This document shows, in pieces, positions 4,080 through 19,083 of a stretch of DNA of 64,000 bases (its first letter is position 1; the number at the start of each line of letters is the position of its first letter). Origin of the DNA: Hyphomicrobiaceae bacterium (GTDB lineage Bacteria; Pseudomonadota; Alphaproteobacteria; Rhizobiales; Hyphomicrobiaceae); the NCBI GenBank assembly GCA_965223255.1, contig CBDCWA010000004.1, positions 1,611,514 through 1,675,513 on the forward strand, in the 5' to 3' direction. The notes beneath the pieces were generated by a model. The model ran no database searches. It was not told the DNA's origin and saw only the letters and a list, made by a program, of their open reading frames with translations. The translations under genes were made by a program, and so were the position numbers.

Positions 4080-4787
4080 TTGGTTGATGTGAGGTTGCTT
4101 GTGAGACGCTTACTGCTGGTCGCTCTATCTGTTCTGGCCGTAGCTGGTGTAGTCTATTGGGCGATCGATTCAAATGGACTACAGCGAAGCGCCGTTATAG
4201 AGGATCCGGTCAAGAACTTAGATCGAACGGGGCTGTCAGTCGCAACGTTTGCAGGCGGGTGTTTTTGGTGTGTCGAAGCAGCTTTCGAGGCCGTGCCGGG
4301 CGTTCGCGCGGCAGTATCCGGCTATTCTGGTGGTGTTATTAAGAATCCGACATACAAAATGGTCACGCGCGGCCTGACTAAGCACGCGGAGTCGGTGCAA
4401 GTCTATTACGACCCAACGATAATAACATATAAAGGGTTACTGCAGGTGCTATGGCGCAGCTCTGATCCTACAGACGATCGGGGCCAGTTTTCTGACAGGG
4501 GCAGCCACTACCGGCCAATCATTTTCTATCACGATAAAGAACAGCAGCGCATAGCCATTCGTGCACGTGACGAACTCTCAAAATCTGGACGTTTCAGCAA
4601 ACCGATCAAGGTCGAGATCGTCGCATTCAAAGCATTCTATCCAGCCGAAGCCTATCACCAGGATTATTATCGGAAGAACCCGGGTTACTACCAGATTTAT
4701 AATATAGGGTCAGGCCGGGTCGATTTTCTGACCAAAACATGGGGCGATGATCTCAAGGTCGACTATGCTAAATACCGACCCCAATGA
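4080..4787 (+). CDS. msrA: peptide-methionine (S)-S-oxide reductase MsrA with N-terminal signal/anchor (exported)
   Basis: GGCFWC active-site motif and GYSGG; hydrophobic N-terminus LLLVALSVLAVAGVVYWA before the catalytic domain. Confidence 0.85.
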   Translation: MVDVRLLVRRLLLVALSVLAVAGVVYWAIDSNGLQRSAVIEDPVKNLDRTGLSVATFAGGCFWCVEAAFEAVPGVRAAVSGYSGGVIKNPTYKMVTRGLTKHAESVQVYYDPTIITYKGLLQVLWRSSDPTDDRGQFSDRGSHYRPIIFYHDKEQQRIAIRARDELSKSGRFSKPIKVEIVAFKAFYPAEAYHQDYYRKNPGYYQIYNIGSGRVDFLTKTWGDDLKVDYAKYRPQ

Positions 4788-5147
4788 AATCAGCTAACAG
4801 ATTTCCACCTTTCCCTACGACACGGATTATCAAGGAACGTGGCGCCAATGGATGTGGCGAACAAACGTAACTTGACCAGGTCTCTATTGTTCCGATCGGC
4901 GATCAATCTCGCGCGGCTTTTTTCTTGCACCATTGAAATGCCCCGCCGGCTTTGCGCAGAAATGCGGTCGGACACCGCCCCATATGACAGCGTTTGCCGC
5001 TGTATTGGCTGAACAATTCCGCCTGCAGACCGAGCGCGCTGGCTGCAAGTATATCGTAACGGCCGGTTCTTGGGTGGCACACATATTGCAACAAAATGGT
5101 GGTCTTAACGTAAACCGCTAAGTTAACTGAAAGCTTTGGAGGACGAG

Positions 5148-5618
5148 ATGGGAACATGGTTGATTGATCGCCGCTTGCTGGGGGTTGTCCTTGCCAGCCT
5201 GGTATTGTTGGTCGTGCCTGGTATGAGCGCGCAGGCTAAAAATGAGGCGATGGCCTCTTACCGGGCTTCTATTATGCAGAGTCTGAATGGGCACGTTGCG
5301 GCCATCGGCGCGATTGTCGATGAAAAGGTCGCCTTTAGGCATCACCTCCTTGATCACGCGGTCGCAATCGTTGGCACAAGCCGCGGTTTGCTGGAAATTT
5401 TCCCCGAGAAGGTAAAGAAAAAGACCGCTGAAAAATCCAAGGCGAATGGCAAGAAGTCAAAGTCTTCTCCTTCCTTCGAGGCTCTGGCTACGGAATTCAA
5501 TCTGGCGGCTGCACATTTGGTTCAGGTGATTCCATCGGGGAACAAGGCAGCCATCAAACAACACTTTGCAAAACTGAAAACAGTGTACGGAAAGCTTCAG
5601 GAGCAAACGAAGAAATAG
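5148..5618 (+). CDS. hypothetical exported all-helical protein (four-helix-bundle-like, Lys-rich linker)
   Basis: ATG 5148 with GGAGGA RBS 4 nt upstream; signal peptide ...VVPGMSAQA; no Cys. Confidence 0.5.
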   Translation: MGTWLIDRRLLGVVLASLVLLVVPGMSAQAKNEAMASYRASIMQSLNGHVAAIGAIVDEKVAFRHHLLDHAVAIVGTSRGLLEIFPEKVKKKTAEKSKANGKKSKSSPSFEALATEFNLAAAHLVQVIPSGNKAAIKQHFAKLKTVYGKLQEQTKK

Positions 5619-6305
5619 GTACCCGCCAAGAGCGATGCAAAGTAGTTTCAAAGCCGATCAGGCCAAGGGACCCTACCCTTGGCCTGCCAAAATGTCGGAG
5701 TAGATTTATTGTGGGTAGAGGAATCCGTGCCGGCGAAGCTGGTAAGAACGCGGGCTGCGACAAGCCTGCAATGGAGTTGAAGCAGCTGGACACAAAGCCA
5801 GTCAATTTATCGGATCAGGCGCAGTCGCAGATTAACTTTGTCCACTCTGACAAACAACAAACAAGTGGCACGGCGGACCAATGCGTGCCGTCGCATCAAC
5901 ACAAGCTGAGCATTTAATTCCCATGGTCAACGAGCGCTTTCGAAGGGCGCTTCCATTGTGTGGCGCAGGTGTCCGATTGCTTGATTGACCGGAGCCCCAT
6001 GCGTTCCATGGGTGTGATTCAACAGCTGACAACTAACATAGATAACATAGACGAATTTTTGCCTATTCGGCTCAAGTATCCGACATGCATGGGTTTTGCC
6101 AATTTGTCAGATGTAGGCCGCCCAACCTACGCATTGATAAATAATGTGAAAGTGCGGAGGTGGCCTGATATTTCCAAGTGCACCCAGACAAGATGGCAGC
6201 ATAGCTGCCACATCTGGCCGGTGTTGCTTGAGGCCGGAGTGGCTATTGTCTTGAATTTCCGGAAAAACCGAAGTTTTCCATTGCGAATCAATCAGTTGTA
6301 GCTTC

Positions 6306-6321
6306 TGGCACAGTCCTTGCA
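6306..6321 (+). promoter_or_regulatory. sigma54 (RpoN) -24/-12 promoter, exact consensus TGGCAC-N5-TTGCA
   Basis: TGGCACAGTCCTTGCA about 178 nt upstream of the Gly-Met-X protein gene; an NtrC-type activator is encoded 8 kb away. Confidence 0.55.
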
Positions 6322-6498
6322 AGCGGTTAATAGAACGTGATGCATTGGGAACGTTTTGTGAGGCCAGGACGCACAGCTGGGGGGTCTCATGTTCTGTAGT
6401 CAGTCAAGAGGCATCGGATTCGCCGCGGTTGTGAAGACGTGCCGCCAACCGAAGGAGCAGGATTAGCAATGGTAACGTTTCAAAAGGAGTTTGGTCGA

Positions 6499-7425
6499 AT
6501 GCGTGGCTACATGGCCGCGGCCGCGGTTATTGCAGCGGGCGTAATAACGGGTATGAGCAGCTCGGAAAGTACCGCGCAGGGCATGCGTGGCATGTACGGA
6601 ATGCCGGGTATGTACGGCATGGGCGGCATGCGCGGCATGCCTGGTATGGGCGGTATGTACGGCATGGGCGGCATGCGCGGCATGTACGGCATGGGTGGTA
6701 TGCGCGGCATGTACGGCATGGGCGGCGTGCGCGGCATGTACGGCATGGGTGGTATGCGAGGTCCAGCCGGCAGGTGGACTTGGGTGTGGGTGCCAGCTCC
6801 TACAAGCAGAATGAGAGGCATGTACGGTATGTACGGAATGCCGGGCATGTACGGCATGGGTGGCATGCGTGGTATGTACGGCATGTACGGAATGCCGGGT
6901 ATGTACGGCATGGGTGGCATGCGCGGTATGTACGGCATGGGCGGCATGCGCGGTATGTACGGTATGCGGGGCATGCCGGGCATGTACGGCATGGGCGGCA
7001 TGCGCGGTATGTACGGCATGGGCGGCATGCGCGGTATGTACGGTATGCGGGGCATGCCGGGCATGTATGGCATGTATGGAATGCCGGGCATGTACGGCAT
7101 GGGCGGCATGCGCGGTATGTATGGCATGGGCGGTATGCGCGGTATGTACGGTATGCGTGGCATGCCCGGTATGGGTGGCATGTACGGCATGTACGGAATG
7201 CCGGGCTTGTACGGCATGGGCGGCATGCGCGGCATGCGCGGTATGTACGGCATGGGCGGCATGGGCGGTATGTACGGCATGCGCGGAATGCCAGGTATGG
7301 GCGGCATGTATGGCATGCGCGGCATGCCGGGTATGGGCGGTATGCGTGGCATGCCCGGAACGCGAAGCTGGGCTCCTCCGCAACCACCGCAGACTCCGCC
7401 ACCGGCGCAGAAGAAGCCGAGCTAA
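6499..7425 (+). CDS. secreted methionine-rich Gly-Met-X triplet-repeat protein (about 80 GMX triplets, about 30% Met)
   Basis: Start at ATG 6499 (AAAGGAG RBS, spacing 9). Signal peptide MRGYMAAAAVIAAGVITGMSSSESTAQG. Then GM[YRPG] triplets in two blocks, about 20 and about 60, split by GPAGRWTWVWVPAPTSRMR. C-terminal Pro-rich tail PPQPPQTPPPAQKKPS. Codon third positions GC-rich in this frame only. Confidence 0.75.
   Translation: MRGYMAAAAVIAAGVITGMSSSESTAQGMRGMYGMPGMYGMGGMRGMPGMGGMYGMGGMRGMYGMGGMRGMYGMGGVRGMYGMGGMRGPAGRWTWVWVPAPTSRMRGMYGMYGMPGMYGMGGMRGMYGMYGMPGMYGMGGMRGMYGMGGMRGMYGMRGMPGMYGMGGMRGMYGMGGMRGMYGMRGMPGMYGMYGMPGMYGMGGMRGMYGMGGMRGMYGMRGMPGMGGMYGMYGMPGLYGMGGMRGMRGMYGMGGMGGMYGMRGMPGMGGMYGMRGMPGMGGMRGMPGTRSWAPPQPPQTPPPAQKKPS
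6583..7360. repeat. tandem nucleotide repeat (9-nt GGCATGNNN units with 81-nt higher-order period) underlying the GMX protein
   Basis: Repeating GGCATGTACGGCATGGGCGGCATGCGC. For example, the 44-nt string at 6943-6986 recurs exactly at 7024-7067. All six frames are open across it, which gives many overlapping artefactual ORFs. Confidence 0.9.
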
Positions 7426-7629
7426 GAGGGCATGGATTTTATGTGATGACAATGTGGGTGCCGGTGGGCAAAGACAGTGCACGCGCACAATGCCCCACCG
7501 GCCTCCGCAAAAACAACCCATCGCATCGTTTCGCTCGTCAACTAACAGCAGTCAAAATCACTTATACCGTGAACCGTTGATTTGATTTTGGGTGCGGTGA
7601 GATTTTCAGAATCTGTGCGGGGGAGGTGA

Positions 7630-8220
7630 ATGTCAGACAGTACTGAGAGCTACAGCGAGGCTGAAGCGTCGTCTCCAATAGAAGAGGCGCGAGCGAAGCC
7701 TATGAAACGAGAAGCATTCAACCAAATTGCTCCGTTTCTTGTCGCTGTCGCAGTCACCGCAGGCATTATAATGGTCTCCGTGGGGGTATCGAAAAAGCAG
7801 CCGGAGCTCGAGCCAGGTCCAAGCAAAGACATCGGCCGACCTGCGGCTCCGCTGTCAAGCGCGAAAGTGCCCGCCGCAAAAGGGCCGGCCGCCACTGCAC
7901 CAAAAGATCCGCAAGTGAGAACGACACCACCAAAGGAGACGGCTTCCCGGCCCTCGAAAGTAGAACCAGTAAAATCCGAATCATCATCGACTGTTAAGAG
8001 TCTTTTTGTCGGCGGTGCAGCACCGAGTAGACGTCCCTCTGATGCTCCGTCGATCAAAGACCTTGCAAAGGACGCCGATTGGTATGCGCGTGCACTTACC
8101 GGCCTCGCAAAGCCCTACCCGCGCAGCTTCAAGTTTTTGGAAGACCAAGGTGCTTGGTATACGCCCTTCAACAAGCGCGGAATGACTGGCCCTTACGACA
8201 TTAGGAGTTGGCATGAATAA
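7630..8220 (+). CDS. single-pass membrane protein with Pro/Ala-rich linker and a conserved about 50-aa C-terminal module
   Basis: GGGGGAGG RBS; acidic N-terminus, TM IAPFLVAVAVTAGIIMVSVGV, low-complexity PAAPLSSAKVPAAKGPAATAPKDP, then C-terminal WYARALTGLAKPYPRSFKFLEDQGAWYTPFNKRGMTGPYDIRSWHE. Confidence 0.6.
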   Translation: MSDSTESYSEAEASSPIEEARAKPMKREAFNQIAPFLVAVAVTAGIIMVSVGVSKKQPELEPGPSKDIGRPAAPLSSAKVPAAKGPAATAPKDPQVRTTPPKETASRPSKVEPVKSESSSTVKSLFVGGAAPSRRPSDAPSIKDLAKDADWYARALTGLAKPYPRSFKFLEDQGAWYTPFNKRGMTGPYDIRSWHE

Positions 8221-9046
8221 GAACACTGGGATGCAACAAATAGCACAGCCATTCACAAATCATGCGTGGCGACCAATGGGCGTCACTGCAATCAAATCCT
8301 TGATTCCAGAAGCGTCGCTCATAGCATCTCTATTGTGGGCAAGTCTGTTCATGATCGGCGTCGCCGACGCGCGCGCTGAAGGCGATATTGAGCAGGGCAA
8401 GAGAGTATTCAGGCTCTGCATCGCCTGCCATAAGATTGGGCCAGGGGCGAGAAACCTGAGCGGGCCAAAACTCAATGGCATTGTTGGCCGAAAGGCCGGC
8501 ACCGTTGAGGGGTTCAAGTATTCTCCCGCCAACAAGAAGGCTGGCGAACAGGGATGGATTTGGACCGAACAGGCATTGGATAAATATTTGGAGAACCCGC
8601 GCAAGGCGATGCCTGGCAATCGGATGGTGTTCATCGGGATAAAAAGCGCGAAGGATAGAAAGAATCTCATCGCTTATCTCAAGTCATTCAAGTCAAGTCA
8701 GCACCGCGGGACGACCAAGACCATGGACGCCGCATCAGCACCGGTCCAGCCGGGGGCTAAAACAAAGCGTTCGGCGAAGGCCGAGCGCGGGGGCAAATCC
8801 CAACCCAAACGGACGACGTCAGTCATATGGGTCGGTGGATCAACCCCGTCCAAACGGCCACCCGCCGCACCGCGCCTGAGAAGCTTCGAGAAGACGCCTG
8901 CCTGGTACCGCCGTGCTCTGGCAGGCCTGTCGAAGCCCTATCCGCCGAGCTTCCGGTTCCTCGAGGATCAAGGTGCTTGGTACACACCATTCAATAGCTC
9001 GGGCATGACAAGCCCTTACGATCTGCGCGCTTGGCATAAAAGTTAG
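8213..9046 (+). CDS. class I (c2-like) cytochrome c with C-terminal extension carrying the same about 50-aa module
   Basis: AGGAG RBS; signal peptide ...MIGVADA; CIACH heme site, GPKLNGIVGRKAG, Met ligand region NRMVFIGIK; basic/Pro-rich linker; C-terminal WYRRALAGLSKPYPPSFRFLEDQGAWYTPFNSSGMTSPYDLRAWHKS. Confidence 0.8.
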   Translation: MNKNTGMQQIAQPFTNHAWRPMGVTAIKSLIPEASLIASLLWASLFMIGVADARAEGDIEQGKRVFRLCIACHKIGPGARNLSGPKLNGIVGRKAGTVEGFKYSPANKKAGEQGWIWTEQALDKYLENPRKAMPGNRMVFIGIKSAKDRKNLIAYLKSFKSSQHRGTTKTMDAASAPVQPGAKTKRSAKAERGGKSQPKRTTSVIWVGGSTPSKRPPAAPRLRSFEKTPAWYRRALAGLSKPYPPSFRFLEDQGAWYTPFNSSGMTSPYDLRAWHKS

Positions 9047-9116
9047 CTTCGCGCAGTGGGTGCCGACGGAGCCCCGGCGCGGTGTGAGAAACAGCATAAG
9101 AATATGAGATAAGAAG

Positions 9117-9977
9117 ATGATGCACAGAACGCTAACCTTGGCAGTGAGTTGCCTGTCCGTCGTTCTTGTCACAGGCAGCATTTATTCGTTTGCATGGTCA
9201 GAGAGTGGCACACGCAAGGGCGATTATGCTGCTGCGGTATGGAACAAACTTCATTTCTCACCAGCCATTGATCGCGCAAGAGATGAGCAGTGCCTTTCAT
9301 GCCATAGCGAGATCCTCAAGCAAAAAGTGCGCACCAAGTCTCCCGCCGGGATAAAGGCGAAAGATTCAATTGCTTGGTATCAGGCAATGGATACGTACAC
9401 AGGAGATCAAGAAACGTTTCATTGGCGGCATATTTCTTCGCCTTTTGCAAAGGCTGTCATGAAGCTGTCGTGCAATTTCTGTCACCGTGGACACGATCCG
9501 CGTGAAGAGGCGCCAGGCTCGAGTGCAACCGCACCGCAAATTGGCAAAGCGACTGGGTTTGCCTTGCGCAAGACGGTTGATCCTTCGCAAACGTGCCTCA
9601 AGTGCCATGGCAGCTTTCCCTATAAGATCATGCAATTGCCGGGACCTTGGCACGAAGTGCGACCGTTAATGGAGTCACCGGAAATAAAAAACGGCTGCCT
9701 AGGCGCTTGTCACAAGGTAGCATTCCGCACCAATCGCCATAACGTGACCTATCTCAATCGCGACAAGATAGAGGAATTGTCCAAGGACAACTCGGACACG
9801 TGCTTTGGCTGTCATGGCGGAAGGGCATGGTACCGGAATTCCTACCCTTATCCGCGAAATCCCTGGCCCGGCATGGACAAAGAGATTCCAAAGTGGGCCA
9901 AGGATAGGCCCACCCAATCCGAAGCGCGCTTTCGCATTGGCGACAAACAAGGCGCCGCGGCTGGCAAGACGAAATAG
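9117..9977 (+). CDS. multiheme c-type cytochrome (four CXXCH plus one CX3CH)
   Basis: N-terminal hydrophobic anchor/signal; CLSCH, CNFCH, CLKCH, CFGCH plus CLGACH. Confidence 0.75.
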   Translation: MMHRTLTLAVSCLSVVLVTGSIYSFAWSESGTRKGDYAAAVWNKLHFSPAIDRARDEQCLSCHSEILKQKVRTKSPAGIKAKDSIAWYQAMDTYTGDQETFHWRHISSPFAKAVMKLSCNFCHRGHDPREEAPGSSATAPQIGKATGFALRKTVDPSQTCLKCHGSFPYKIMQLPGPWHEVRPLMESPEIKNGCLGACHKVAFRTNRHNVTYLNRDKIEELSKDNSDTCFGCHGGRAWYRNSYPYPRNPWPGMDKEIPKWAKDRPTQSEARFRIGDKQGAAAGKTK

Positions 9978-10012
9978 CGGGCACGGCAGCAAAGTGTTGG
10001 AGGCAAAACCAT

Positions 10013-12547
10013 ATGAGTGTGAAGATTGACGTCCTCAGATCAGCTTTAAACCTGACGCGCCGCCGTTTCGTGCAACTGTCGGCGGCAAGTGCAGCCGCCG
10101 GTGCGGCAGGGCTTAAGCCGGAGCAGGCACAGGCGTTCGCCTATGAACCATATCCGACTGACGACGAGCTGACGACGATAGTAACAAGCTGCGCGCATAA
10201 TTGCGGATCGCGTCACGCACTCGTTGCACACAAGAAAGGTGATGTAATTGTCAGGCTGTCATCGGATGACGGACGCTATCAGAAGGATGGAGAATACGGC
10301 AAGGATACAGAGGACGAGCCGCAGGTGCGCGCCTGTCTGCGCGGACGGTCGTATCGTTCGCGGCTCTACTCGGCAGAGCGCCTGCTCCATCCCATGATTC
10401 GGGTCGGAGCGCGCGGTGAAGGGAAATTCAAACGCGCCTCCTGGGATACGGCGTTGGACTACATTGCCGAGCGCATAGTGAACATTAAGAATACCTATGG
10501 GCCAACTGCAATCCTGGACCAAAGCTATGCCGGCGCCTCATGGGGCGTCTTGCATCGCTCGGATCAGATCGAGGGGCTATTAGGGCGCTTTCTCGGCATT
10601 TTCGGTTGCCGCACGACGTCCTGGTCCGTGCCTTCGTATCAGGGAACGACTTTTTCGTCAGAAACGACCTTTGGCACGATTGAGGATGGAAATGAGGATG
10701 ATACGTTTGCCCACTCCAAGCTGATGATCATGTGGGGCTGGAATCCGGCCTACACATTTCATGGCGGCAATACATTCTACTATATGCGACTTGCAAAGCA
10801 GCGCGGATGCAAATTTGTCTTGGTGGACCCGCAATACACAGATTCAGCGGCCTCCTATGATGCCTGGTGGATTCCAATTCGGCCTAATACGGATGCGGCA
10901 ATGCTCGCGGCAATGGCCCACTATATCTTTGTCAACAAACTTCAAGATCAGAGCTTCATCAATCGCTTCTGCCTTGGCATGGACGCGGGCACAATGCCGG
11001 CATTCGCCACCGACCAGGAAAATTTCAGAGACTACATTCTTGGCAGGTATGACGGTCAACCTAAGTCTCCGGAATGGGCGCAAGAGATCTGTGGTGTAAA
11101 GGCCGATGACATCAAGAAGCTCGCGCGGATGTATGCGACGACAAAGCCAGCGGCATTGAAAGCAAGCTGGGCGCCAGGGCGATGCGCATACGGCGAACAG
11201 TATAGCAGGATGGCCGCGGCCCTTCAGGCAATGACCGGAAACATCGGTGTCTTGGGCGGCAGTGCTGAAGGCGTCGGCAAGGCCTGGAAAGCACAGGCTG
11301 CTGCGGGACCGGTAGATCAATACGCCAACATACATGCCGCTGCGATCAAGTCAGATAGATGGGCCGACTGCGTCCTTAATTACCCAAATGTGCGCCGCGA
11401 AGATGTCGGCTTGTGGCCGAAGTCGGGCGCCATGGATGGGGTAATACCGAATATTCGAGCGATTTGGTGGCAAGCGTCCGACTGGTTTAACCAGCTCCCC
11501 AACATCAACAAACAAATAGAAGCGATCCAAAAGCTTGATCTCGTCGTCTGCCAAGATTCGACCATTACGCCATCTGGGATATGGGCCGATGTGCTTCTGC
11601 CGGTTGCTACCCACTTCGAGCGCCACGATGTGGCCCTGCCTTGGTACAAGGGCCACTACTATATTCATAGGCCGAAGGTGATCGAGCCGCTTGGAGAAAG
11701 CAAGACCGACTGGCAGATTTTCACCGAGCTCGCGTTCCGACTCGGATTTGGCAAGACCATGAATCCACTTGCCTCCCGCGACTATTTCCACAACGATGAT
11801 GCGACCGACGAGGCGTATCTCAGGGATTGGTGGGAAAAGCGCGTCATGGGGTATCAAGGAGTTACGATGCCCTGGGATGAGTTCAAGAAACGCGGCATCT
11901 ACAAATTCCGACTGGACAAGCCCCATGTTGCCTTTCGCGAGCAGATTGAGGAGGGCAAACCATTCAAGACCACCTCCGGCAAGATCGAGATATTCTCTAT
12001 CAAACTATCGAACATTAAGGACTTTCGCCAAACGCAGTTTGGTTATCCTATCCCCGCAATCCCAAAATGGATTGAGCCATGGGAAGGCAGGCGCGATCCA
12101 AAGGTGCGCCAATATCCATTCCAGATGATCACGCCACACCCACGTTGGCGAACGCACTCAATATTCAACAACATCGGGTGGCTTCGGGAGACCTATGAGC
12201 AGGAAGTGACAATCAATGCGGACGATGCCGAGAAGCTCGGCATTAAGACAGGGGACAACGTCTACATCTGGAATGAGCGAGGCGCGACGGTGACACCAGC
12301 CTATGTGACACAACGACTGATGCCGGGCGTCGTTGTGCTTTACGAAGGCGCTTGGATGGATCGGGACACAAAGGGTATCGACCGGTCCGGCAATCCGGAT
12401 TTCCTGACCCTGGATGCGCCCAGCCCTGCAGGGGCATTTGCATACAATACGCTGTTGGTAAACATGCAGAAGACCGATCTGCCGCATCGACCCGGCTGGG
12501 ACAAGCTCGCAACGGCACGCAGCCACGTCTTCCGGCGTGACAATTGA
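10013..12547 (+). CDS. Tat-exported DmsA/YnfE-family molybdopterin (bis-MGD) oxidoreductase catalytic subunit
   Basis: GGAGG RBS; twin-arginine signal TRRRFVQLSAASAAAGAAG; TSCAHNCGSRHAL aligns with E. coli DmsA SACTVNCGSRCPL; QVRACLRGRS...HPMIRVGARGEGKFKRASWDTALDYIA is near-identical to the DmsA block as I recall it. Confidence 0.9.
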   Translation: MSVKIDVLRSALNLTRRRFVQLSAASAAAGAAGLKPEQAQAFAYEPYPTDDELTTIVTSCAHNCGSRHALVAHKKGDVIVRLSSDDGRYQKDGEYGKDTEDEPQVRACLRGRSYRSRLYSAERLLHPMIRVGARGEGKFKRASWDTALDYIAERIVNIKNTYGPTAILDQSYAGASWGVLHRSDQIEGLLGRFLGIFGCRTTSWSVPSYQGTTFSSETTFGTIEDGNEDDTFAHSKLMIMWGWNPAYTFHGGNTFYYMRLAKQRGCKFVLVDPQYTDSAASYDAWWIPIRPNTDAAMLAAMAHYIFVNKLQDQSFINRFCLGMDAGTMPAFATDQENFRDYILGRYDGQPKSPEWAQEICGVKADDIKKLARMYATTKPAALKASWAPGRCAYGEQYSRMAAALQAMTGNIGVLGGSAEGVGKAWKAQAAAGPVDQYANIHAAAIKSDRWADCVLNYPNVRREDVGLWPKSGAMDGVIPNIRAIWWQASDWFNQLPNINKQIEAIQKLDLVVCQDSTITPSGIWADVLLPVATHFERHDVALPWYKGHYYIHRPKVIEPLGESKTDWQIFTELAFRLGFGKTMNPLASRDYFHNDDATDEAYLRDWWEKRVMGYQGVTMPWDEFKKRGIYKFRLDKPHVAFREQIEEGKPFKTTSGKIEIFSIKLSNIKDFRQTQFGYPIPAIPKWIEPWEGRRDPKVRQYPFQMITPHPRWRTHSIFNNIGWLRETYEQEVTINADDAEKLGIKTGDNVYIWNERGATVTPAYVTQRLMPGVVVLYEGAWMDRDTKGIDRSGNPDFLTLDAPSPAGAFAYNTLLVNMQKTDLPHRPGWDKLATARSHVFRRDN

Positions 12548-13233
12548 TGATTGGGGACACAGATATGGCAAAGGCGCCGATTGACAAGAAGAAGATAAAG
12601 AACGCGGTAAAACGCAAGAAACAAGACGTTTACAAGCCAGTGGTTCCCCACCAACAGCTCGGGTTTATCCATAACAATGTCGATTGTATCGGGTGCAGGG
12701 CTTGCGAGATTGCTTGTAAGGATAAGAATGGGTTAGCACCCGGACCAAGATTCCGCAGAGTACAATATATCGAGGGTGGCACATATCCCGAGGTGTTTGC
12801 ATACAAGGTAAATATGTCGTGCAATCACTGCGCTGAACCTGCCTGCCTTCCCGCCTGTCCCACCGGCGCGATCTACAAACGGAAAAAGGATGGTATTGTC
12901 GACATTGACTCGACGTTGTGCATCGGATGCCGGCGCTGCGAGGCCACATGCCCCTACGGCGCACCGCAATACATCCCTGATCAAAATATCGTTTCTAAGT
13001 GTAATATGTGCGTGGATGAGATTGATGCCGGTCGTAAGCCCTATTGCGTGATGGCCTGCATGATGCGCGTGCTCGATATTGGTCCGATAGACAAATTGCG
13101 TGATGGGACTTGGGACACTAAAGCCAAGGCAAAGCAGGAGAAAGTTGTACGTCAGGTGCAGAATATGGCGGATCCGGAGCTAACCAATCCATCGATCGTA
13201 TTCGTCGCGCATAGCAAGGGCAAAGTGAAATAG
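12544..13233 (+). CDS. DmsB-like 4x[4Fe-4S] electron-transfer subunit
   Basis: Four Cys clusters: CIGCRACEIAC, CNHCAEPACLPACP, CIGCRRCEATCP, CNMCVDEIDAGRKPYCVMAC. Probable true start ATG 12565 (MAKAPID, GGGGA RBS). Confidence 0.9.
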   Translation: MMIGDTDMAKAPIDKKKIKNAVKRKKQDVYKPVVPHQQLGFIHNNVDCIGCRACEIACKDKNGLAPGPRFRRVQYIEGGTYPEVFAYKVNMSCNHCAEPACLPACPTGAIYKRKKDGIVDIDSTLCIGCRRCEATCPYGAPQYIPDQNIVSKCNMCVDEIDAGRKPYCVMACMMRVLDIGPIDKLRDGTWDTKAKAKQEKVVRQVQNMADPELTNPSIVFVAHSKGKVK

Positions 13234-13302
13234 GCGGTATGCTGCCGTGTTCGTGAACCACCCTGCGCCTTTTCCAATGCGCACTCACCTAGAGCGTTTC
13301 AA

Positions 13303-14130
13303 GTGCACAAACCTATCAGAGGTGCCCACCATGCTGGCCCTAGCCAGCATGCAGGGCGGGAGAATTCATTCGTGCAAGACCATGGACAAAGCGAAGCTGA
13401 ACTTCTTGCTGCTTTCAGAGAGTCGGTCGATGATGACCTGAAGTTGATTGCAGCACTGCACGATCGCGAGATCGATGCACCTGCGATCGCGCAGCTCAAA
13501 CAACTGAGGTTTCCCAGTGGCCTCGGTTTTAATCTGTCAAAGTCGGCAGCGAAACAAGCCCAACGACAAATGATCGATGCTCTTGCGGATCTGCCGGATG
13601 TACCCGATCAAGCGCTTCTCGATGAACTCGCCGTCGATTTTGCAGCAATCTATCTGACCTATCGCTACCGGGCCGCGCCAACGGAATCCGTGTGGCTCGA
13701 TAAGGACCATCTCGAGCGCCAGCAACCTATGTTTCAGACCCGAGCCGCCTACCGCCGAAGAGGTCTGAAGGTCGTCAACTGGAACGTGAGGTCTGAAGAT
13801 CACCTGGTCACTCAACTGCTTTTTGTGGCGCATTTGATTGGCGAATGTCGCGACGAAGTGGCGCTAGCGGATGCTGCAGCGTTCCTTGACCAGCACTTGC
13901 TCCGTTGGATTGACATCTTCGCCTTGAGTGTAGCGCAACGTTGCAGCGCTCGTTTTTATAGCGCCCTCGGCTCGCTGACAGCTGCCTATTTGGACGAGCT
14001 GCGCGATGTTCTCGCAGAGATCCTGGATGAACCGCGACCCCAAATCGTAACAGCCGATCAGATTCTGCAGCCACCCGACGAAGCCGAGCAGCACACTCCA
14101 ATCGCACCGGCCGTTGGTCCAAGCTGGTGA
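13303..14130 (+). CDS. TorD/DmsD-family redox-enzyme maturation chaperone
   Basis: Position immediately after A/B subunits; ...EDHLVTQLLFVAHLI... resembles the TorD family signature; start uncertain (alternative GTG 13372 with GGGAG RBS). Confidence 0.6.
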   Translation: MHKPIRGAHHAGPSQHAGRENSFVQDHGQSEAELLAAFRESVDDDLKLIAALHDREIDAPAIAQLKQLRFPSGLGFNLSKSAAKQAQRQMIDALADLPDVPDQALLDELAVDFAAIYLTYRYRAAPTESVWLDKDHLERQQPMFQTRAAYRRRGLKVVNWNVRSEDHLVTQLLFVAHLIGECRDEVALADAAAFLDQHLLRWIDIFALSVAQRCSARFYSALGSLTAAYLDELRDVLAEILDEPRPQIVTADQILQPPDEAEQHTPIAPAVGPSW

Positions 14131-14151
14131 TCAACCAGCGAATGGGTGCCG

Positions 14152-15534
14152 TTAGTCGCTGCGTTCACTAACGCTAAGTCCATGCTTCTTGAGCAACCTG
14201 TACGTGTTGCGCTCGCTTATTCCCAATACTTCAGCAATCCGCGAGCGATGTCCGCCGTATTTTACGACCAATCTAGCCAGGTAATCTCGCCGGATTTCCT
14301 CTAACGTTGGCTCGTGATCAAACATGAACGCCGCCGTTTCACAACGAGACGACTGAGCGCTGGGTGGAGCACTCAACCCCAGGTGCCGTGCTCGGATAGT
14401 AACGTCGTCGCCAGATACCAGGATTGCCCGCTCTATGACGTTTCTAAGCTCGCGAACATTGCCTGGCCATGAGTATGCGGTAAGCACCTCAATGGCATCC
14501 TTGCTCAATATCTTCTGCCGGGCGCGCTGAAAAGATCTGGTATCCAAAAACAGCTCTGACAGCACCGCGATGTCCTCGCGCCGCTGTCGCAGCGGTGGTA
14601 CACTGATCACAACTGTAGCCAAGCGATAGTAAAGGTCAGATCGAAATCGTCCCTCGTCGATGGATGCTATAAGGTCACGATTAGTTGCAGCGACGATGCG
14701 CGCGTCACTGATTATCTTCTGGGTGCCGCCGACGCGCCGAAATTCTCCGGTCTCAAGCACGCGCAGTAGTTTTGCCTGCATCGACGCAGGCAATTCGCCG
14801 ATTTCGTCAAGGAACAGTGTTCCGCCCTCGGCAATTTCGATCAAGCCCTGCTTGCGCCGGTCCGCTCCTGTAAATGCCCCTTTCTCGTGACCAAACAACT
14901 CCGATTCGAACAGCGTCTCTTGTAATGTCGTTGCATCCACAGGCACAAAGTTGGAATCCGCACGATCGCTCAGCTGGTGAATGGCTTTTGCTACAAGCTC
15001 CTTGCCGACGCCACTTTCGCCCTCGATTAGAACCGTTGAATCGCTTGGTGCGACCAACTCAATAAGATGTGCCATTTCCTCAAAAGCATTGCTCCGTCCA
15101 ACCATAATCTTCTTGATGTTGGGATTTAGTTGTTCTCGGCAATACTGGTAGCTGCGCCTCAAGGAGCTGTTTTCCAATGCTCGGCCAATAGCAAACTCCA
15201 GTTCGGACGGATTGATCGGTTTCGTCAGATAGTCAACCGCACCAGACCGGATAGCTTCGACTGCATGCCGAATGCTTCCGTACGCCGTCAGAACGAGCAC
15301 AGGGCATTGAGCTGAAAGTTCCGGCAAACACTGGATACCATCGATGTCGGGAAGTCTGATATCGAGGAGAGCAAGAGCGGGATCATGAGTCTCCAGCGTC
15401 ACCTTGGCTTCCTCCCATGAATAGACGCCAGTTGGCTGATAGCCCATCGCCCGCAGTTGTTCGATCAGAAAATGATTAAGTGCCTTGTCGTCCTCTATGA
15501 CAAGAAGATGCTTACCTTTCTTTCTTTGCGTCAT
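14152..15534 (-). CDS. sigma54-dependent NtrC-family response regulator (receiver-AAA+-HTH)
   Basis: Receiver domain with D...LLDIRLPDIDG; Walker A GESGVGKE; GAFTGA sigma54-contact motif (ESELFGHEKGAFTGA); C-terminal Fis-type HTH. Confidence 0.9.
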   Translation of the reverse strand: MTQRKKGKHLLVIEDDKALNHFLIEQLRAMGYQPTGVYSWEEAKVTLETHDPALALLDIRLPDIDGIQCLPELSAQCPVLVLTAYGSIRHAVEAIRSGAVDYLTKPINPSELEFAIGRALENSSLRRSYQYCREQLNPNIKKIMVGRSNAFEEMAHLIELVAPSDSTVLIEGESGVGKELVAKAIHQLSDRADSNFVPVDATTLQETLFESELFGHEKGAFTGADRRKQGLIEIAEGGTLFLDEIGELPASMQAKLLRVLETGEFRRVGGTQKIISDARIVAATNRDLIASIDEGRFRSDLYYRLATVVISVPPLRQRREDIAVLSELFLDTRSFQRARQKILSKDAIEVLTAYSWPGNVRELRNVIERAILVSGDDVTIRARHLGLSAPPSAQSSRCETAAFMFDHEPTLEEIRRDYLARLVVKYGGHRSRIAEVLGISERNTYRLLKKHGLSVSERSD

Positions 15535-17435
15535 GATAGTTCTTTCGCTACTTCTGCAGAAGGCAATGTGACAACGAATCTAGTCCCCTCACCAACCACG
15601 CTCGTCACATCTAACCTGCCGCCGCTTCGTTTGACTATTTCTTGGCATATTGAAAGCCCAAGCCCTGTTCCGTGAACGCCGTCGGCACGTTTACTCCAGA
15701 AGGGATCGAATATTTTGGCGAGATCGCTCTTCTTGATCCCCACGCCAGTGTCCTCAAAGACCAGCTCGACCACATCTTCGCAGACTGAGCCCGAAACCAG
15801 CAGGCGCCCGCCATCAGGCATGGCATGCAGAGCGTTCTGTGCGATGTTTAGCACCATCATTCTCATCTCGCTGTCGGAGCCGATTGATCTGAGTTCACTC
15901 TCAAGATCCATCGATATGTCGACCTCTGACTTCAGTGCCTCAGCGTTGAGTAGGGAGAGAACCTCGAACACGACGTTGTTGAGATTTACAAGTTCGCGGT
16001 GCTCGCTTGCTGGTGCGCTAAGCTTCAAAAGACGCGACGTAACTTCTATGCAGCGCGTTATCTGATCTTCGATAATGTCAAGATACTTGCTTGCCTTCTC
16101 GTCCCGACCCTCCCGTAGAGCTCTTTTCGCTGAGTCGAAGCCCAAAAGTATGGACGCAAGAGGGTTGTGAATCTCGTGTGCAACACCCGCGGCCAGGAAG
16201 CCAATTTCCGACAGCCGCTGCTCTTGCGATAGCCGCACGTCCTTGCTCAGGTCTCTAATGACCTCCACAACGAATTTTTTTTGCGTGTCGTCAATAGTGA
16301 TTTCAAGCAGCGCTGCTGAGACCTCGACCGGGATTTCTTTCTCATCGGCGCTCACATGAGAATGCCGACAAGTCAAGACCTGCCCTCCTTTCTGCAGTTC
16401 ATGCAGCGGACAGCTGACCAAGCTCGCTGGGCAAGGCGATTCACGAGAATGGCTGGACCAATAGCAGGGTCGCTGTACCACCTCAGACCGCGCGCGATGC
16501 TGTTGTTCGCAGAATGCGCGGTTAGCCTTGACGACCTGATAGTTCATGTCGATCACGCGCACTCCATCGGGCATTATGTCGATCAGGTCCTGCAAATACC
16601 GCTCTCTGGTCTCTATATTGTGTACAGCTTGAGCGATACGAGCGGACATGTCGTTAAAGGCACGTCCAAGCCGCCCAATCTCATCGGAGCTTTTTAGCGG
16701 CACACGGTGACCCAGTTGGCCCAGCGACATCTTATCCGCTGCCTCGGTCAGTCCTTTCACAGGTGCGAGCACGAACCAGTTAAGCAGAAATCCGATGCCA
16801 CCAATGGTAGTCAGCACGACTGCTATTCCGGCACCACTCAGCATCAATACTGCAAACATTGTGTCGCGTCTGATGTTCGTTGCGTCATAGTCAACGACGA
16901 GAATTCCGTTTATTGGGTGGGTATCAATCTGGCCATGGCATTTAGTGCATGGGCCGCGGTTGCGGACCGGGTTTATGCTGCGCAGAATGTCACCAGCAAC
17001 GGCGTCCGCAACGAAGGCCGAACGGGGCCCGTGCCCTTTTATTGTTGCCTTGCAGTCTGGGCACAACTCACCTGCTTCGAGATCAAAACGTCGGCCAAGC
17101 TGTATCTTGTTGCTCGCAAATCTGACTTCACCATTCGGCGCAAGAATCATGACACCGGAAATATTCTCCTGTTCACCCAATCGTTCGACCATTTTCCTCA
17201 GGCCAACGATGTCACGATTGAGCATCGCATTCTCAAGCCCCAGCTGCAGCAGGCGGTTGACCTCCGTGGATGCTGCGCTGCGTTCCCTCAGGATTTGATC
17301 ACGATAGGAGAGAATGACCAACGCAAGGAAACAGATCGATGCAAACGTTAGGCTTGCGACAAGGATCAGGGTTATTTTCCGCCTTAGGCTTGCAGCAGAC
17401 CACCTGGCTAGGTCATTCCATAACTGTCCCATCAT
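15531..17435 (-). CDS. sensor histidine kinase; periplasmic domain with CXXC and CXXCH motifs, then HAMP and a Cys-rich PAS-like region
   Basis: Two TM helices flank an about 140-aa periplasmic domain with CPDCKATIKGH and GPCTKCHGQ. Cytoplasmic part has C-x11-C-x6-C-x16-C, H-box AHEIHNPLA and an HATPase_c domain with G-boxes DTGVGI, GTGLGL. Stop overlaps the RR start. Confidence 0.85.
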   Translation of the reverse strand: MMGQLWNDLARWSAASLRRKITLILVASLTFASICFLALVILSYRDQILRERSAASTEVNRLLQLGLENAMLNRDIVGLRKMVERLGEQENISGVMILAPNGEVRFASNKIQLGRRFDLEAGELCPDCKATIKGHGPRSAFVADAVAGDILRSINPVRNRGPCTKCHGQIDTHPINGILVVDYDATNIRRDTMFAVLMLSGAGIAVVLTTIGGIGFLLNWFVLAPVKGLTEAADKMSLGQLGHRVPLKSSDEIGRLGRAFNDMSARIAQAVHNIETRERYLQDLIDIMPDGVRVIDMNYQVVKANRAFCEQQHRARSEVVQRPCYWSSHSRESPCPASLVSCPLHELQKGGQVLTCRHSHVSADEKEIPVEVSAALLEITIDDTQKKFVVEVIRDLSKDVRLSQEQRLSEIGFLAAGVAHEIHNPLASILLGFDSAKRALREGRDEKASKYLDIIEDQITRCIEVTSRLLKLSAPASEHRELVNLNNVVFEVLSLLNAEALKSEVDISMDLESELRSIGSDSEMRMMVLNIAQNALHAMPDGGRLLVSGSVCEDVVELVFEDTGVGIKKSDLAKIFDPFWSKRADGVHGTGLGLSICQEIVKRSGGRLDVTSVVGEGTRFVVTLPSAEVAKELS

Positions 17436-17962
17436 TGCGATGCCAGCCGAATGATAAAGCTCTCAGTAGGAACAAGATCCGTATCAATCCGGCAAAGCCT
17501 TTCGGTTTGGTCAGCAAGATCATCCTGGAAGACGGTGATCGGAACGACGACCGGCACCAGCCATTCCCGCGCAGCAAATGCCTTAAGCCAGTCCCGCCGC
17601 TCCTCAGAGGCCTTTGTCGCGAGAATGGATTCCGCGTTATGCACAACGAGCCCGCCACGATTCGATTTCTTTTCGATGTACGCGGTCAGAGCCGATAGTG
17701 GAACCTGGCCGGCCTCCCATCCCAGGGGGAGAAGTTTTTCCGCCCGAAAGTCTATGAAGGTGAAGTCAAGAGCATTCGTCATGGCGCGTATTAACTCTGG
17801 CCGGTACTCGGGAAAAACGACGAAGAAACCTCCACGTCCAGCAGCCTGGGCAATCATCTCGGCAACCGGCCTTATCCAAGGTAATAGAGGCTCTCGAGAC
17901 TGCATCATCGCAACACTTGAAACAGTTTGTCGTAATGCTGCGTCTTCAGGCAGATCCGACAT
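17432..17962 (-). CDS. hypothetical protein co-transcribed with the two-component system
   Basis: Overlaps kinase start by 4 nt; start may be an internal Met at 17908/17905 abutting the upstream stop. Confidence 0.5.
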   Translation of the reverse strand: MSDLPEDAALRQTVSSVAMMQSREPLLPWIRPVAEMIAQAAGRGGFFVVFPEYRPELIRAMTNALDFTFIDFRAEKLLPLGWEAGQVPLSALTAYIEKKSNRGGLVVHNAESILATKASEERRDWLKAFAAREWLVPVVVPITVFQDDLADQTERLCRIDTDLVPTESFIIRLASQ

Positions 17963-19083
17963 CGCAACTCGGCCGATCCCTGGCTCTCAGGCATCAAAAA
18001 CACAGTTCCGCACGAGCGGCATTGCGCAGAATCAAGTTGAATGGATGTCGGGTCGCCGCGCTGCCAGGACTTGACGGCGACTGCATCAGTATCACAAACG
18101 TCAGCGCACAGCCTGCAGCCGGTGCAATGTGACGGAGCGATCTTGTAGGCGGGCCGGCCCGCGTGATCAGTCACAAGTGTGATTGCATGAGTTGGGCATA
18201 TGCGAATACAGGCATTGCACCCGACGCAGTTCGCAGTATCAATTTCGGGAAGATAGGGGTTCAAAGGCATCCCGCTTTCGCCGGCTGGAAGTCGCTCCGC
18301 TGCCGGAACCTGACGTTGTGTCTTCAAGTTGGAATCCACGTCCACCAACCTGCTAACGGCCACAAAAAAACCGCGCCGGGATGCACGCATCGTTGTTGAA
18401 CGTATAGTATGCCATTCGCCAGGTGTGTACTCAGTGATGCTGAATTCATCCATGCCTCGGTCCGCCCAGAGACGTTGGAGGTTGATAACCGCTTGATCAA
18501 ACTGATGACTCAAACCACGCTCGCAGCTCAGGCATGCTTCGCGGCTCACGATCAGCTGTCGCAAACCTTGTGCATATAGTTGAGCCAGTTCATCTATTCC
18601 GATCGAATTCAGGCAAGGTCGTACACCAGGTCCACCTTCTTCGACGGCGACGGAACAGGCAAACAGTCCAATCTTGTCATCGTCATAAGATCTCGCAGCG
18701 TTGGCCAGTGGCAATTCAATCGCAGTCTGCGGGCAGACCGGCACACAGATGCCACATCCATCGCAAGCTTGTTCGTCAAATCCGAGAGCATCCTCCTCTA
18801 AGACCCACGCGGCACGTGGACAAGCATCAACGCAGTCTTGGCAACTAGCGTTGGACACGATCGCATGAACGCAACGATCAGCATCAATAACTGGAAGGTC
18901 TGCGGGCAGATGCGACAGCTTATCGCTTCGCGGAAGGGCAAAGCTGCGTCCTGGCAACCCAGACTCAGTCGTGTCCGAACGATTCTTCGACATCACGTTA
19001 TCGCTTCCGGCGCCCGGTTGCCCTCGCTCGCGCTCGCTGCGCGCACCTACTCGCGTGGCAGCCGACCCGGCGGGCACGGGCAC
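17905..19083 (-). CDS. polyferredoxin-like multi-[4Fe-4S] protein
   Basis: CDGCGICVPVCP, CVGCNACIRICP, CTGCRLCADVCD (CX2CX2CX3C[PD]) plus extra CxxC pairs; N-terminal 40 aa low-complexity so start uncertain. Confidence 0.75.
   Translation of the reverse strand: MPVPAGSAATRVGARSERERGQPGAGSDNVMSKNRSDTTESGLPGRSFALPRSDKLSHLPADLPVIDADRCVHAIVSNASCQDCVDACPRAAWVLEEDALGFDEQACDGCGICVPVCPQTAIELPLANAARSYDDDKIGLFACSVAVEEGGPGVRPCLNSIGIDELAQLYAQGLRQLIVSREACLSCERGLSHQFDQAVINLQRLWADRGMDEFSITEYTPGEWHTIRSTTMRASRRGFFVAVSRLVDVDSNLKTQRQVPAAERLPAGESGMPLNPYLPEIDTANCVGCNACIRICPTHAITLVTDHAGRPAYKIAPSHCTGCRLCADVCDTDAVAVKSWQRGDPTSIQLDSAQCRSCGTVFLMPESQGSAELRCRICLKTQHYDKLFQVLR

Follow-up and report, generated by a model that had tools for sequence, protein, structure and literature searches.

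Cytochrome c_y of Rhodobacter capsulatus is a membrane-tethered electron carrier, not known to have a C-terminal docking segment, in which an anchor, a flexible Pro/Ala-rich linker and a class I cytochrome c keep the carrier near its partners. In Azospira suillum, hypochlorite is scavenged by means of MrpX, a methionine (Met)-rich periplasmic protein that is regenerated by the molybdenum (Mo) enzyme YedY1 (MsrP) (Melnyk et al. 2015, PMC4436054), and DorA-type enzymes reduce protein-bound methionine sulfoxide (MetSO) (Tarrago et al. 2020, PMC7402097). The ideas combined in this study (tethered electron carriers, small accessory subunits, and a Met-rich sink together with a Mo reductase) are already known. 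Here we describe a conserved segment of approximately 73 residues, referred to below as the module, which forms the C-termini of two adjacent open reading frames (ORFs), ORF A and ORF B, in the genome of a Hyphomicrobiaceae bacterium. The window is the whole 64,000-nucleotide stretch that was analysed (contig CBDCWA010000004.1). Our leading, although tentative, proposal, to which we would give slightly less than an even chance, is that the module is a fold-on-binding docking subunit of a conserved, uncharacterised periplasmic redox system.

ORF A (196 residues, 7630..8220, + strand, from the ORF list) is predicted to consist of an acidic cytoplasmic N-terminus, a membrane helix acting as a signal anchor, a disordered linker and the module. 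The helix (residues 33-53, IAPFLVAVAVTAGIIMVSV..., 7726..7788, +) has its best 19-residue Kyte-Doolittle window, with a value of 2.46, at residue 33, and from the KPMKRE ahead of the helix we infer an N-in/C-out topology. The linker (residues 54-123, 7789..7998, +) has 13 Pro, 10 Ser, 10 Lys and 9 Ala among its 70 residues, and module copy A occupies residues 124-196 (7999..8217, +). ORF B (277 residues, 8213..9046, +) begins with a signal-peptide-like N-terminus followed by a cytochrome c2/c550-like domain with a CIACH motif (approximately residues 55-160, 8375..8692, +), a linker rich in Ser, Thr, Lys and Ala (43 residues, 161-203; 8693..8821, +) and module copy B (residues 204-277, 8822..9043, +). 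Both its CxxCH haem motif and its profile match to PF00034 (1.9e-7, residues 59-158, 32.7 bits against a cut-off of 21.3) identify ORF B as a class I cytochrome c. The match of ORF B to NF043008 (CycA-like, cytochrome c-550; 4.5e-30, 104.5 bits) falls under the cut-off of 240, and by these profile scores the protein is c2/c550-like but not a CycA equivalog. The stop of ORF A and the start of ORF B overlap (ATGAATAA) and a Shine-Dalgarno-like sequence precedes both genes (GGGGAGG for ORF A), so they are probably co-translated.

A first-pass annotation of this locus had claimed that two adjacent, otherwise unrelated proteins end in the same domain. This was borne out, as both ORFs lie on the + strand at the positions given above and BLASTP aligned them with 57/111 identities (E 5e-35), and outside the common C-terminal region they are unrelated. 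The annotation had made the module too short, at about 50 residues (46-47 were quoted); the common region spans approximately 73-78 residues, beginning at 'VGG..PS.RP..AP', and the two C-termini are 59% identical across 78 aligned residues. A chance similarity of the two ends is excluded because hundreds of proteins contain the region, at E-values as low as 1e-33 to 1e-64. The exact ORF A sequence is present in the public collection (P0118), where it carries no name. In agreement with the annotation, the module is not a known domain. Searches of Pfam-A 2025, NCBIfam 20.0 and the PDB were made with the ~73-residue module: no Pfam or NCBIfam match was found at E<=0.1 for either ORF A or the C-terminus of ORF B, 50 module members compared with domain models at E<=10 returned noise only (DUF6330, 0.043, 3 members), and the best E-value of a PDB profile search was 0.92, which is not significant. 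A WW-domain-like relationship was rejected by eye, as the Trp spacing differs. Neither the module nor the operon described below was found in the domain libraries or the searchable literature.

The search from the two copies that the annotation had suggested showed that the usual form of this family is one that it had missed. A profile built from both copies matched proteins of public genomes and metagenomes that form 112 clusters at 90% identity, and nearly all of these proteins have 89-135 residues. In 104 of 109 typical members a hydrophobic signal-like N-terminus runs straight into the module, with no cargo. The commonest family form is consequently a stand-alone protein of ~100 residues comprising a signal peptide and the module (~70 residues when mature), and the fusion-type architecture, although correctly recognised in ORF A and ORF B, is not the rule. 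Named members in public records are all "hypothetical protein". An exhaustive hidden Markov model (HMM) search of 1.84 billion cluster representatives identified 272 proteins at E<=1e-3 (these being clusters at 50% identity), of which 232 reached E<=1e-10. When one genome per species was scanned, 228 species proved to carry the module, most of them Alpha-, Beta- and Gammaproteobacteria. The alphaproteobacterial carriers are Hyphomicrobiales, Rhodobacterales and Azospirillum halopraeferens; Beta-type lineages are represented by Thiobacillus, Hydrogenophilales and Burkholderiales; and the gammaproteobacterial carriers are Chromatiales, Thiotrichales, Arenicellales, Ectothiorhodospiraceae, Sedimenticola and Ca. 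Thiodiazotropha. The module also occurs in a few bins labelled Myxococcota or Planctomycetota. Among the cultured carriers are Jhaorihella thermophila DSM 23413, Rhodovulum imhoffii DSM 18064, Defluviimonas denitrificans DSM 18921 and Thiofilum flexile DSM 14609. One 89-residue protein from a Rhodobacterales bin (P0112), in which the final 30 residues of the module follow a DUF1064-like (PF06356) N-terminus, is probably an assembly or gene-call chimera.

The conservation of the module is very high for such a short sequence, with 18 of 74 columns invariant and a further 12 near-invariant among 50 diverse members and the consensus IAG..P..RP.GAPVI....KD..WY.RALTG...PYP.SLRFLEDQGAWYTPF..PGMTGPYDIRGWH. 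Conserved aromatic residues are unusually many (3 Trp, 4 Tyr and 2 Phe), the Met of PGMTGPYD is near-invariant, and the C-terminal W-H contains a His. These features could point to a module that is itself redox-active, either binding a cofactor (haem via Met/His) or carrying a protein-derived one (a Trp/Tyr-derived quinone). However, we find this very improbable, as in some members A, L or N stands in place of the Met and Y, S, R or F in place of the His, the module has no cysteines, and the cluster showed no dedicated maturation enzyme, for example of the radical-SAM type.

The genes around the module suggested the system in which it may act. In the window, ORF A and ORF B are followed on the + strand by genes for a periplasmic multihaem cytochrome c (MHC; 286 residues, five haem motifs, 9117..9977; Pfam Cytochrome_C7 / Paired_CXXCH), a DmsA/YnfE-like molybdopterin subunit that is exported by the twin-arginine translocation (Tat) pathway (MoA; 844 residues, 10013..12547; PF00384, PF01568, TRRRF Tat motif), a DmsB-like iron-sulfur (FeS) subunit with four clusters (FeSB; 229 residues, 12544..13233; PF13247 1.3e-22) and a TorD/NarJ-type assembly chaperone (275 residues, 13303..14130; PF02613 5.8e-19). 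Genes for a sigma-54 response regulator, a HAMP/PAS histidine kinase, a 176-residue protein and a 392-residue polyferredoxin lie beyond them on the - strand (14152..19083) and are conserved with the cluster by synteny. The module gene comes first in this operon in Alpha-, Beta- and Gammaproteobacteria. It heads the same operon in three unrelated first examples (Jhaorihella, a metagenome-assembled genome (MAG) of Ectothiorhodospiraceae, and a metagenome contig), in the order module, Met-rich protein (no Pfam match), MHC, MoA, FeSB, Nitrate_red_del chaperone and polyferredoxin, with a HAMP/PAS histidine kinase and a sigma-54 activator nearby. A MoA homologue was located within 10 kb of the module in 44 of the 47 loci that had at least 6 kb of sequence on each side; ORFs in these related loci were called mechanically. 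The reverse search, starting from MoA, also reached the module, in Ca. Competibacter denitrificans, where a 103-residue module gene and two Met-rich genes stand ahead of the cytochrome.

In the window, the gene just upstream of ORF A encodes an exported Gly-Met-X repeat protein of 328 residues with a signal-like N-terminus, 26% of which is Met (GMYGMGGMRGMPGM..., 6439..7425, +). It matches the collagen triple-helix repeat profile PF01391 (3.6e-21, 75.1 bits, cut-off 27.2) through uninterrupted Gly-X-Y triplets, with Met at X in nearly every one. The protein has WTWVWVP as a central island and, at its C-terminus, SWAPP with a Pro-rich tail. Overlapping ORFs of 352, 281, 268, 241 and 200 residues in other frames of the repeat gene (6463-7585, both strands) look like by-products of its 9-nucleotide periodic, stop-free repeat and not genes. 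A Met-rich ORF adjoins the module in 50 of the 52 loci with enough downstream sequence, two of the 50 being broken by masked N-runs. These homologues have 80-580 residues, with 18-30% Met, 27-42% Gly and a typical GMSGMGGMSGM repeat; there are roughly 30-150 Met per chain, and sometimes 2-3 such genes per locus. About 70% of them end in [WYF]xPP, and many hold one or two non-repeat islands, such as WVCTQWS. Their start positions are uncertain and the repeat regions are at times masked or mis-assembled. A literature search for the GMSGM repeat, and for operons with a Met-rich protein and a molybdoenzyme, returned no description of the cluster.

Although most members are free proteins, the module has also been joined to other sequences, and within these fusions it is nearly always C-terminal. 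A membrane helix and a long disordered linker precede it in ORF A (P0118) and in P0123, P0136, P0138, P0140, P0141, P0143, P0151 and P0168. At least three types of cytochrome c are linked to it: c2-like (ORF B, P0137), membrane-anchored c_y-like (P0207, P0230) and a type with 'C(A/M)ACHGPDGKG' (P0176, P0192, L047). The gene for P0207 adjoins the operon and Sox genes. In P0215 and P0226 the module carries a Met-rich tail, and P0113 and P0114 are tandem double modules. The fusions to cytochromes c, membrane anchors and a Met-rich tail arose independently in several separate clades. P0215 forms the end of a cytochrome-MoA-FeSB-chaperone operon, and the next gene in that locus (L091:9001-10207) is MobA-like (NTP_transf_3), of the molybdenum cofactor guanylyltransferase type, which is consistent with the operon of an enzyme that has a bis(molybdopterin guanine dinucleotide) (bis-MGD) cofactor. 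The settings of P0207 and P0215 favour a connection of the fusions with the operon.

The paired arrangement of ORF A and ORF B recurs in two other genomes, L008 (a Hyphomicrobiaceae MAG whose MoA is 90% identical) and L088. In L088 the ORF A-type copy (L088:9754-10020) has 88 residues, with neither anchor nor linker, and substitutions at sites that are invariant elsewhere (W->R, PYPLGMKFLERQG), and this copy is probably in decay. In a neighbour-joining tree of the modules of the three genomes, the A-type copies clustered together and the B-type copies clustered together, an indication that the duplication predates the three genomes. The family itself is not a local duplication, since the module is conserved far beyond this locus and the A and B copies fall in separate clades with those of other genomes. 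The possibility that the module was found only as a recent local duplication, which the first-pass annotation had raised against its own proposal, is thereby removed. Its other objection, a match to a well-characterised domain of unrelated function, fails as well, given the negative domain searches above. The linkers diverge faster than what they connect: the linker of ORF A is 29% identical to that of its L008 orthologue, as against 63% for the module, and the ORF B linker is 28-33% identical to those of its orthologues, as against 65-67% for the cytochrome domain. Linkers at 28-33% identity, compared with 63-67% for modules and cytochrome domain, behave as spacers. In Rhodobacterales the module is free, and it is the multihaem cytochrome (~490 residues, six CxxCH) whose N-terminus is fused to a membrane helix and a c2-like domain. 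We read this fusion of the same two cargoes as a Rosetta-stone link between the module and the complex.

The annotation had suggested that the module is for docking or targeting, and these data separate the two parts. The recurrent, independent fusions to cytochromes c and anchors, and the poor conservation of the linkers, favour tethering, whereas targeting is disfavoured by the majority of members having no cargo. If the module were a C-terminal signal that directs proteins to a dedicated pathway of export or anchoring, its C-terminal place in otherwise unrelated exported proteins would be accounted for, and yet a protein that is only signal peptide and module has nothing to sort. In addition, the module has neither the hydrophobic helix nor the basic tail of signals such as PEP-CTERM, LPXTG and GlyGly-CTERM, and no sortase-like gene was seen in the cluster. 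A sorting function is therefore barely credible.

Structure prediction was consistent with a docking segment. The AlphaFold2 model of the module monomer, built from a 50-sequence alignment, had a mean predicted local distance difference test (pLDDT) score of 68.5 and two short helices, at residues 26-32 and 42-49, with pLDDT values around or below 50 over the ~25 C-terminal residues, which are the best conserved. A Foldseek search of the PDB with this model returned 0 hits, the model being too coil-like. On these models the module has no autonomous predicted fold. Because the sequence is highly conserved and yet does not fold alone in prediction, the module is best read as a segment that becomes ordered on a partner. 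The resemblance to fold-on-binding accessory subunits and docking domains is one of concept only, that of a short conserved segment, predicted to be disordered alone, with varied cargo and variable linkers, as the module shares no sequence or fold similarity with any described docking domain.

Based on these observations, we propose that the module is the docking subunit of a system whose other parts would be at least one Met/Gly-rich repeat protein, the pentahaem cytochrome, the DmsA-type Mo subunit, the DmsB-type FeS subunit and the TorD-like chaperone, under the control of a sigma-54 two-component regulator. The module would bind the enzyme side (MoA, FeSB or MHC), and in most bacteria it would do so as a free subunit. 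In the Hyphomicrobiaceae lineage of the window, the module gene would have been duplicated, with each copy gaining an N-terminal cargo on a flexible leash, and tethering would be the role of the module in ORF A and ORF B. The signal-anchor helix of ORF A would leash an otherwise soluble complex to the inner membrane, and the cytochrome c2 of ORF B would be a dedicated monohaem electron carrier held at the complex. Together, these two leashes would replace the covalent multihaem cytochrome fusion of Rhodobacterales. An operon in which electrons leave the enzyme toward an oxidase would also fit the c2 fusions, as well as the Planctomycetota-type contigs described below.

Several observations weigh against this proposal. 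A free docking subunit that carries no cargo still needs a role of its own. In mirror-tree comparisons, module distances correlated with those of MoA (r 0.49) and FeSB (r 0.50), with partial correlations of 0.28 and 0.34, respectively, and a partial correlation of 0.10 for MHC; the module tracks MoA and FeSB more than MHC, which is weak evidence in favour of the proposal but too weak to name the partner. The neighbour-joining tree that dates the duplication is built on 73 residues, is poorly resolved and is indicative only. Three loci (L009, L010 and L069) have the module and a Met-rich gene with no MoA in the 20 kb of sequence available, and in L010 the tail of a convergent operon (chaperone, polyferredoxin) is visible. 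Lastly, in three Planctomycetota-type contigs (L047:80-3575, L090 and L095) a fusion of a 'CAACHGPDGKG' cytochrome c to the module stands beside haem-copper oxidase genes. In L047 the fusion is followed by COX2, which has a fused cytochrome c domain, and COX1, and in L090 and L095 by a COX3-like gene. These contigs are only 1.4-3.9 kb in length, such that a Mo operon could lie nearby.

The last two points bear on the partner of the module. The first-pass annotation had suggested the reductase as one possibility, and this captured only part of the picture: the tightest genomic partner is the Met-rich protein (6439-7425), and there are also the fusions beside oxidase genes. An alternative to enzyme-side docking is therefore that the partner is the Met-rich repeat protein, with the module as an adaptor or escort that sits on the non-repeat islands or the C-terminal [WYF]xPP and positions the polymer at the membrane, the cytochromes or the reductase. 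Adjacency to a Met-rich gene is the tightest linkage observed (50/52 loci), the pair persists in the three loci with no nearby MoA, in one of them (L009) beside exported MsrB and MsrA, the module is fused to a Met-rich tail in P0215 and P0226, and the WxPP that ends ~70% of Met-rich proteins is a candidate docking peptide. Against this, WxPP is missing from ~30% of the Met-rich proteins (some of which are perhaps truncated by repeat assembly), a pure escort would have little reason to be fused to cytochromes c, and the short Planctomycetota-type contigs have no Met-rich gene. In addition, a 6.4-kb Cocleimonas contig keeps the module with MoA and MHC homologues and has no Met-rich gene. We consider this alternative unlikely, albeit a serious contender, and it could be compatible with enzyme-side docking if the module bridges both partners.

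Two of the loci mentioned above had further features of their own. In the Cocleimonas contig (L061:11-4183), the module lies directly before the MoA homologue (873 residues), which is followed by a 351-residue pentahaem cytochrome; FeSB is also lacking from the 6.4 kb, and genes for a hemerythrin, a dihaem cytochrome c and a DUF302 protein lie downstream. In L009:9857-14508, from an Arenicellales MAG, the module and a 579-residue Met-rich protein are followed by the exported MsrB (SelR 2e-48) and MsrA, and multihaem cytochromes and a NrfD-like gene lie upstream.

The oxidase contigs raise the possibility that the module serves docking in the c-type cytochrome respiratory chain at large (to a haem-copper oxidase, cytochrome c1 or another cytochrome) and that the Mo operon is merely its commonest client. 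The cytochromes fused to the module are always of the high-potential monohaem type, and the COX2/COX1 genes of L047 and the COX3-like genes of L090 and L095 follow such fusions. We judge it improbable, however, given that 94% of complete loci have the Mo operon, that most members have no attached cytochrome, and that the oxidase contexts come from very short contigs for which no further examples were obtained: when metagenomes were scanned twice for additional Planctomycetota-type cytochrome-module fusions, one scan yielded none and the other matched the cytochrome part only.

The gene pair in the window suggested another explanation, in which the module is a self-association domain and an ORF A-ORF B heterodimer is a split, membrane-tethered, two-chain analogue of cytochrome c_y. 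The genes adjoin and overlap, are probably translationally coupled, and supply one anchor and one cytochrome, an arrangement kept in L008 and represented by an apparently decayed copy in L088; the tandem double modules P0113 and P0114 are natural examples of two modules in one chain. The likeness to cytochrome c_y extends to P0207 and P0230, which have its layout plus the module, and to P0192, in which an anchor and a cytochrome are also on one chain, whereas the window splits anchor and cytochrome over two polypeptides, each ending in a module. However, because these single-chain proteins retain the module, joining an anchor to a cytochrome cannot be its only purpose. The commonest form, a lone secreted module, is likewise difficult to reconcile with such a role, and the AlphaFold2 model of P0113 had no compact pseudo-dimer (pLDDT 62.8, pTM, the predicted template modelling score, 0.29), a result that is weakly informative since all the single-module rows of its alignment fell on the first half and the second half had almost no depth. 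Self-association as the main function of the module seems quite improbable.

The enzyme to which the module would dock was compared with its closest characterised relatives. Like the catalytic subunits of DmsABC and DorA systems, MoA carries a Tat signal and is encoded with a DmsB-like partner and a TorD-like chaperone. Its best PDB relative is DorA (1e-71), and DorA and TorA are its closest solved relatives. The Ser of VPSYQG in MoA aligns with the Mo ligand Ser147 of DorA, and the equivalent of DorA Tyr114 is conserved. In contrast to DmsA and YnfE proteins proper, MoA scores below the curated cut-off of TIGR02166, the model of the DMSO/selenate reductase A subunit (1.8e-184, 615 bits, cut-off 777.7). 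Its N-terminal FeS motif, C-A-H-N-C-G-S-R-H (residues 60-68, 10190-10216), has the form C-x3-C-x3-H...C, with the fourth Cys at residue 108, and is invariant in 11 aligned orthologues; the His stands where DmsA and YnfE have their third Cys. MoA is 70-90% identical in related loci, and the only public names for it are "molybdopterin-dependent oxidoreductase" and "anaerobic DMSO reductase subunit A". Two other identities were considered and rejected. An Arx/Arr enzyme was dismissed as the ArrA model matched at only 1e-21, and a perchlorate/chlorate island as there was no cld among the genes examined and the enzyme is not of the Pcr/Clr type.

The route of electrons to or from MoA would also differ from that of the DmsABC and DorA systems. 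The window genes scanned (4080-19083) gave no match to a NrfD/DmsC-type anchor, and in the place of a quinol-oxidising DmsC or DorC there is a soluble pentahaem cytochrome; the module and the Met-rich proteins have no counterpart in those systems either. The cytochrome of the window has four CxxCH motifs and one CxxxCH (CLGACH), at a site where most orthologues have CxxCH, is 49-69% identical across related loci, and has a signal peptide that looks cleavable. As there is no DmsC-type anchor in the window and the MHC signal peptide is cleavable-looking, the system probably forms a soluble periplasmic complex. Only in L006/L007 is the operon followed by an NrfD gene.

The second comparison is with MrpX and MsrP. 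Here, as there, an exported Met-rich protein is encoded with a periplasmic Mo enzyme of the MetSO-reducing kind, and the concept of a sacrificial, regenerable Met sink would apply to both. The cluster has methionine sulfoxide reductase genes next to it in the window (MsrA), L006 (MsrP/MsrQ) and L009 (MsrB and MsrA), with MsrP/MsrQ adjoining it only in L006/L007. The differences are considerable: a DmsA/DmsB-type bis-MGD enzyme with a pentahaem cytochrome instead of the sulfite-oxidase-fold MsrP with MsrQ, a HAMP/PAS kinase and sigma-54 activator instead of SigF/NrsF, a Met-rich protein that is a Gly-Met-X repeat polymer of 130-580 residues, and a module that has no counterpart in MrpX systems. 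By analogy, we suggest that the substrate of the enzyme may be MetSO on the Met-rich protein and that the Gly-Met-X polymer may be a regenerable Met/MetSO pool served by the Mo enzyme, because Msr genes recur beside the cluster, DorA-type enzymes reduce protein MetSO and the MrpX/YedY principle provides a precedent. Extended further, the operon would be an unrecognised periplasmic Met/MetSO redox system in which a cytochrome-wired DmsAB-type enzyme cycles the polymer. The polymer would act as an oxidant sink that can be regenerated, or even as a rechargeable reserve of oxidising equivalents for bacteria of oxic-anoxic interfaces, such as sulfur oxidisers, Competibacter and Rhodobacterales, and the module would be the dedicated adaptor that presents polymer, electron carrier or membrane anchor to the enzyme. 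We regard this extended scheme as unlikely to hold in full, with a modest chance at best.

Other genes of the window lie around the cluster. Directly upstream are an MsrA with an N-terminal hydrophobic anchor or signal (4080..4787, +; PF01625 1.7e-58), which probably faces the periplasm, and a cytochrome c'-like protein (5136..5618, +; PF01322 6e-11), a homologue of which is also found upstream in L008, L021 and L088. On the - strand, the 176-residue protein (17432-17962), which has no family match, and the 392-residue polyferredoxin (17905-19083) are kept in many loci at 33-49% identity, and may act in electron input or in maturation.

Together, these data describe a highly conserved small protein of more than 200 species, with no name, domain model or structure, that marks an apparently undescribed molybdoenzyme operon whose other hallmark is an exported protein consisting of one quarter methionine. 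If the module is a docking handle, it would be an easy genomic marker for the operon and would show modular tethering of electron carriers occurring naturally in the periplasm. The module is also a direct experimental entry point to the partners and substrate of the enzyme. The link to MsrA, MsrB and MsrP suggests a new route of periplasmic methionine-sulfoxide handling in environmental Proteobacteria.

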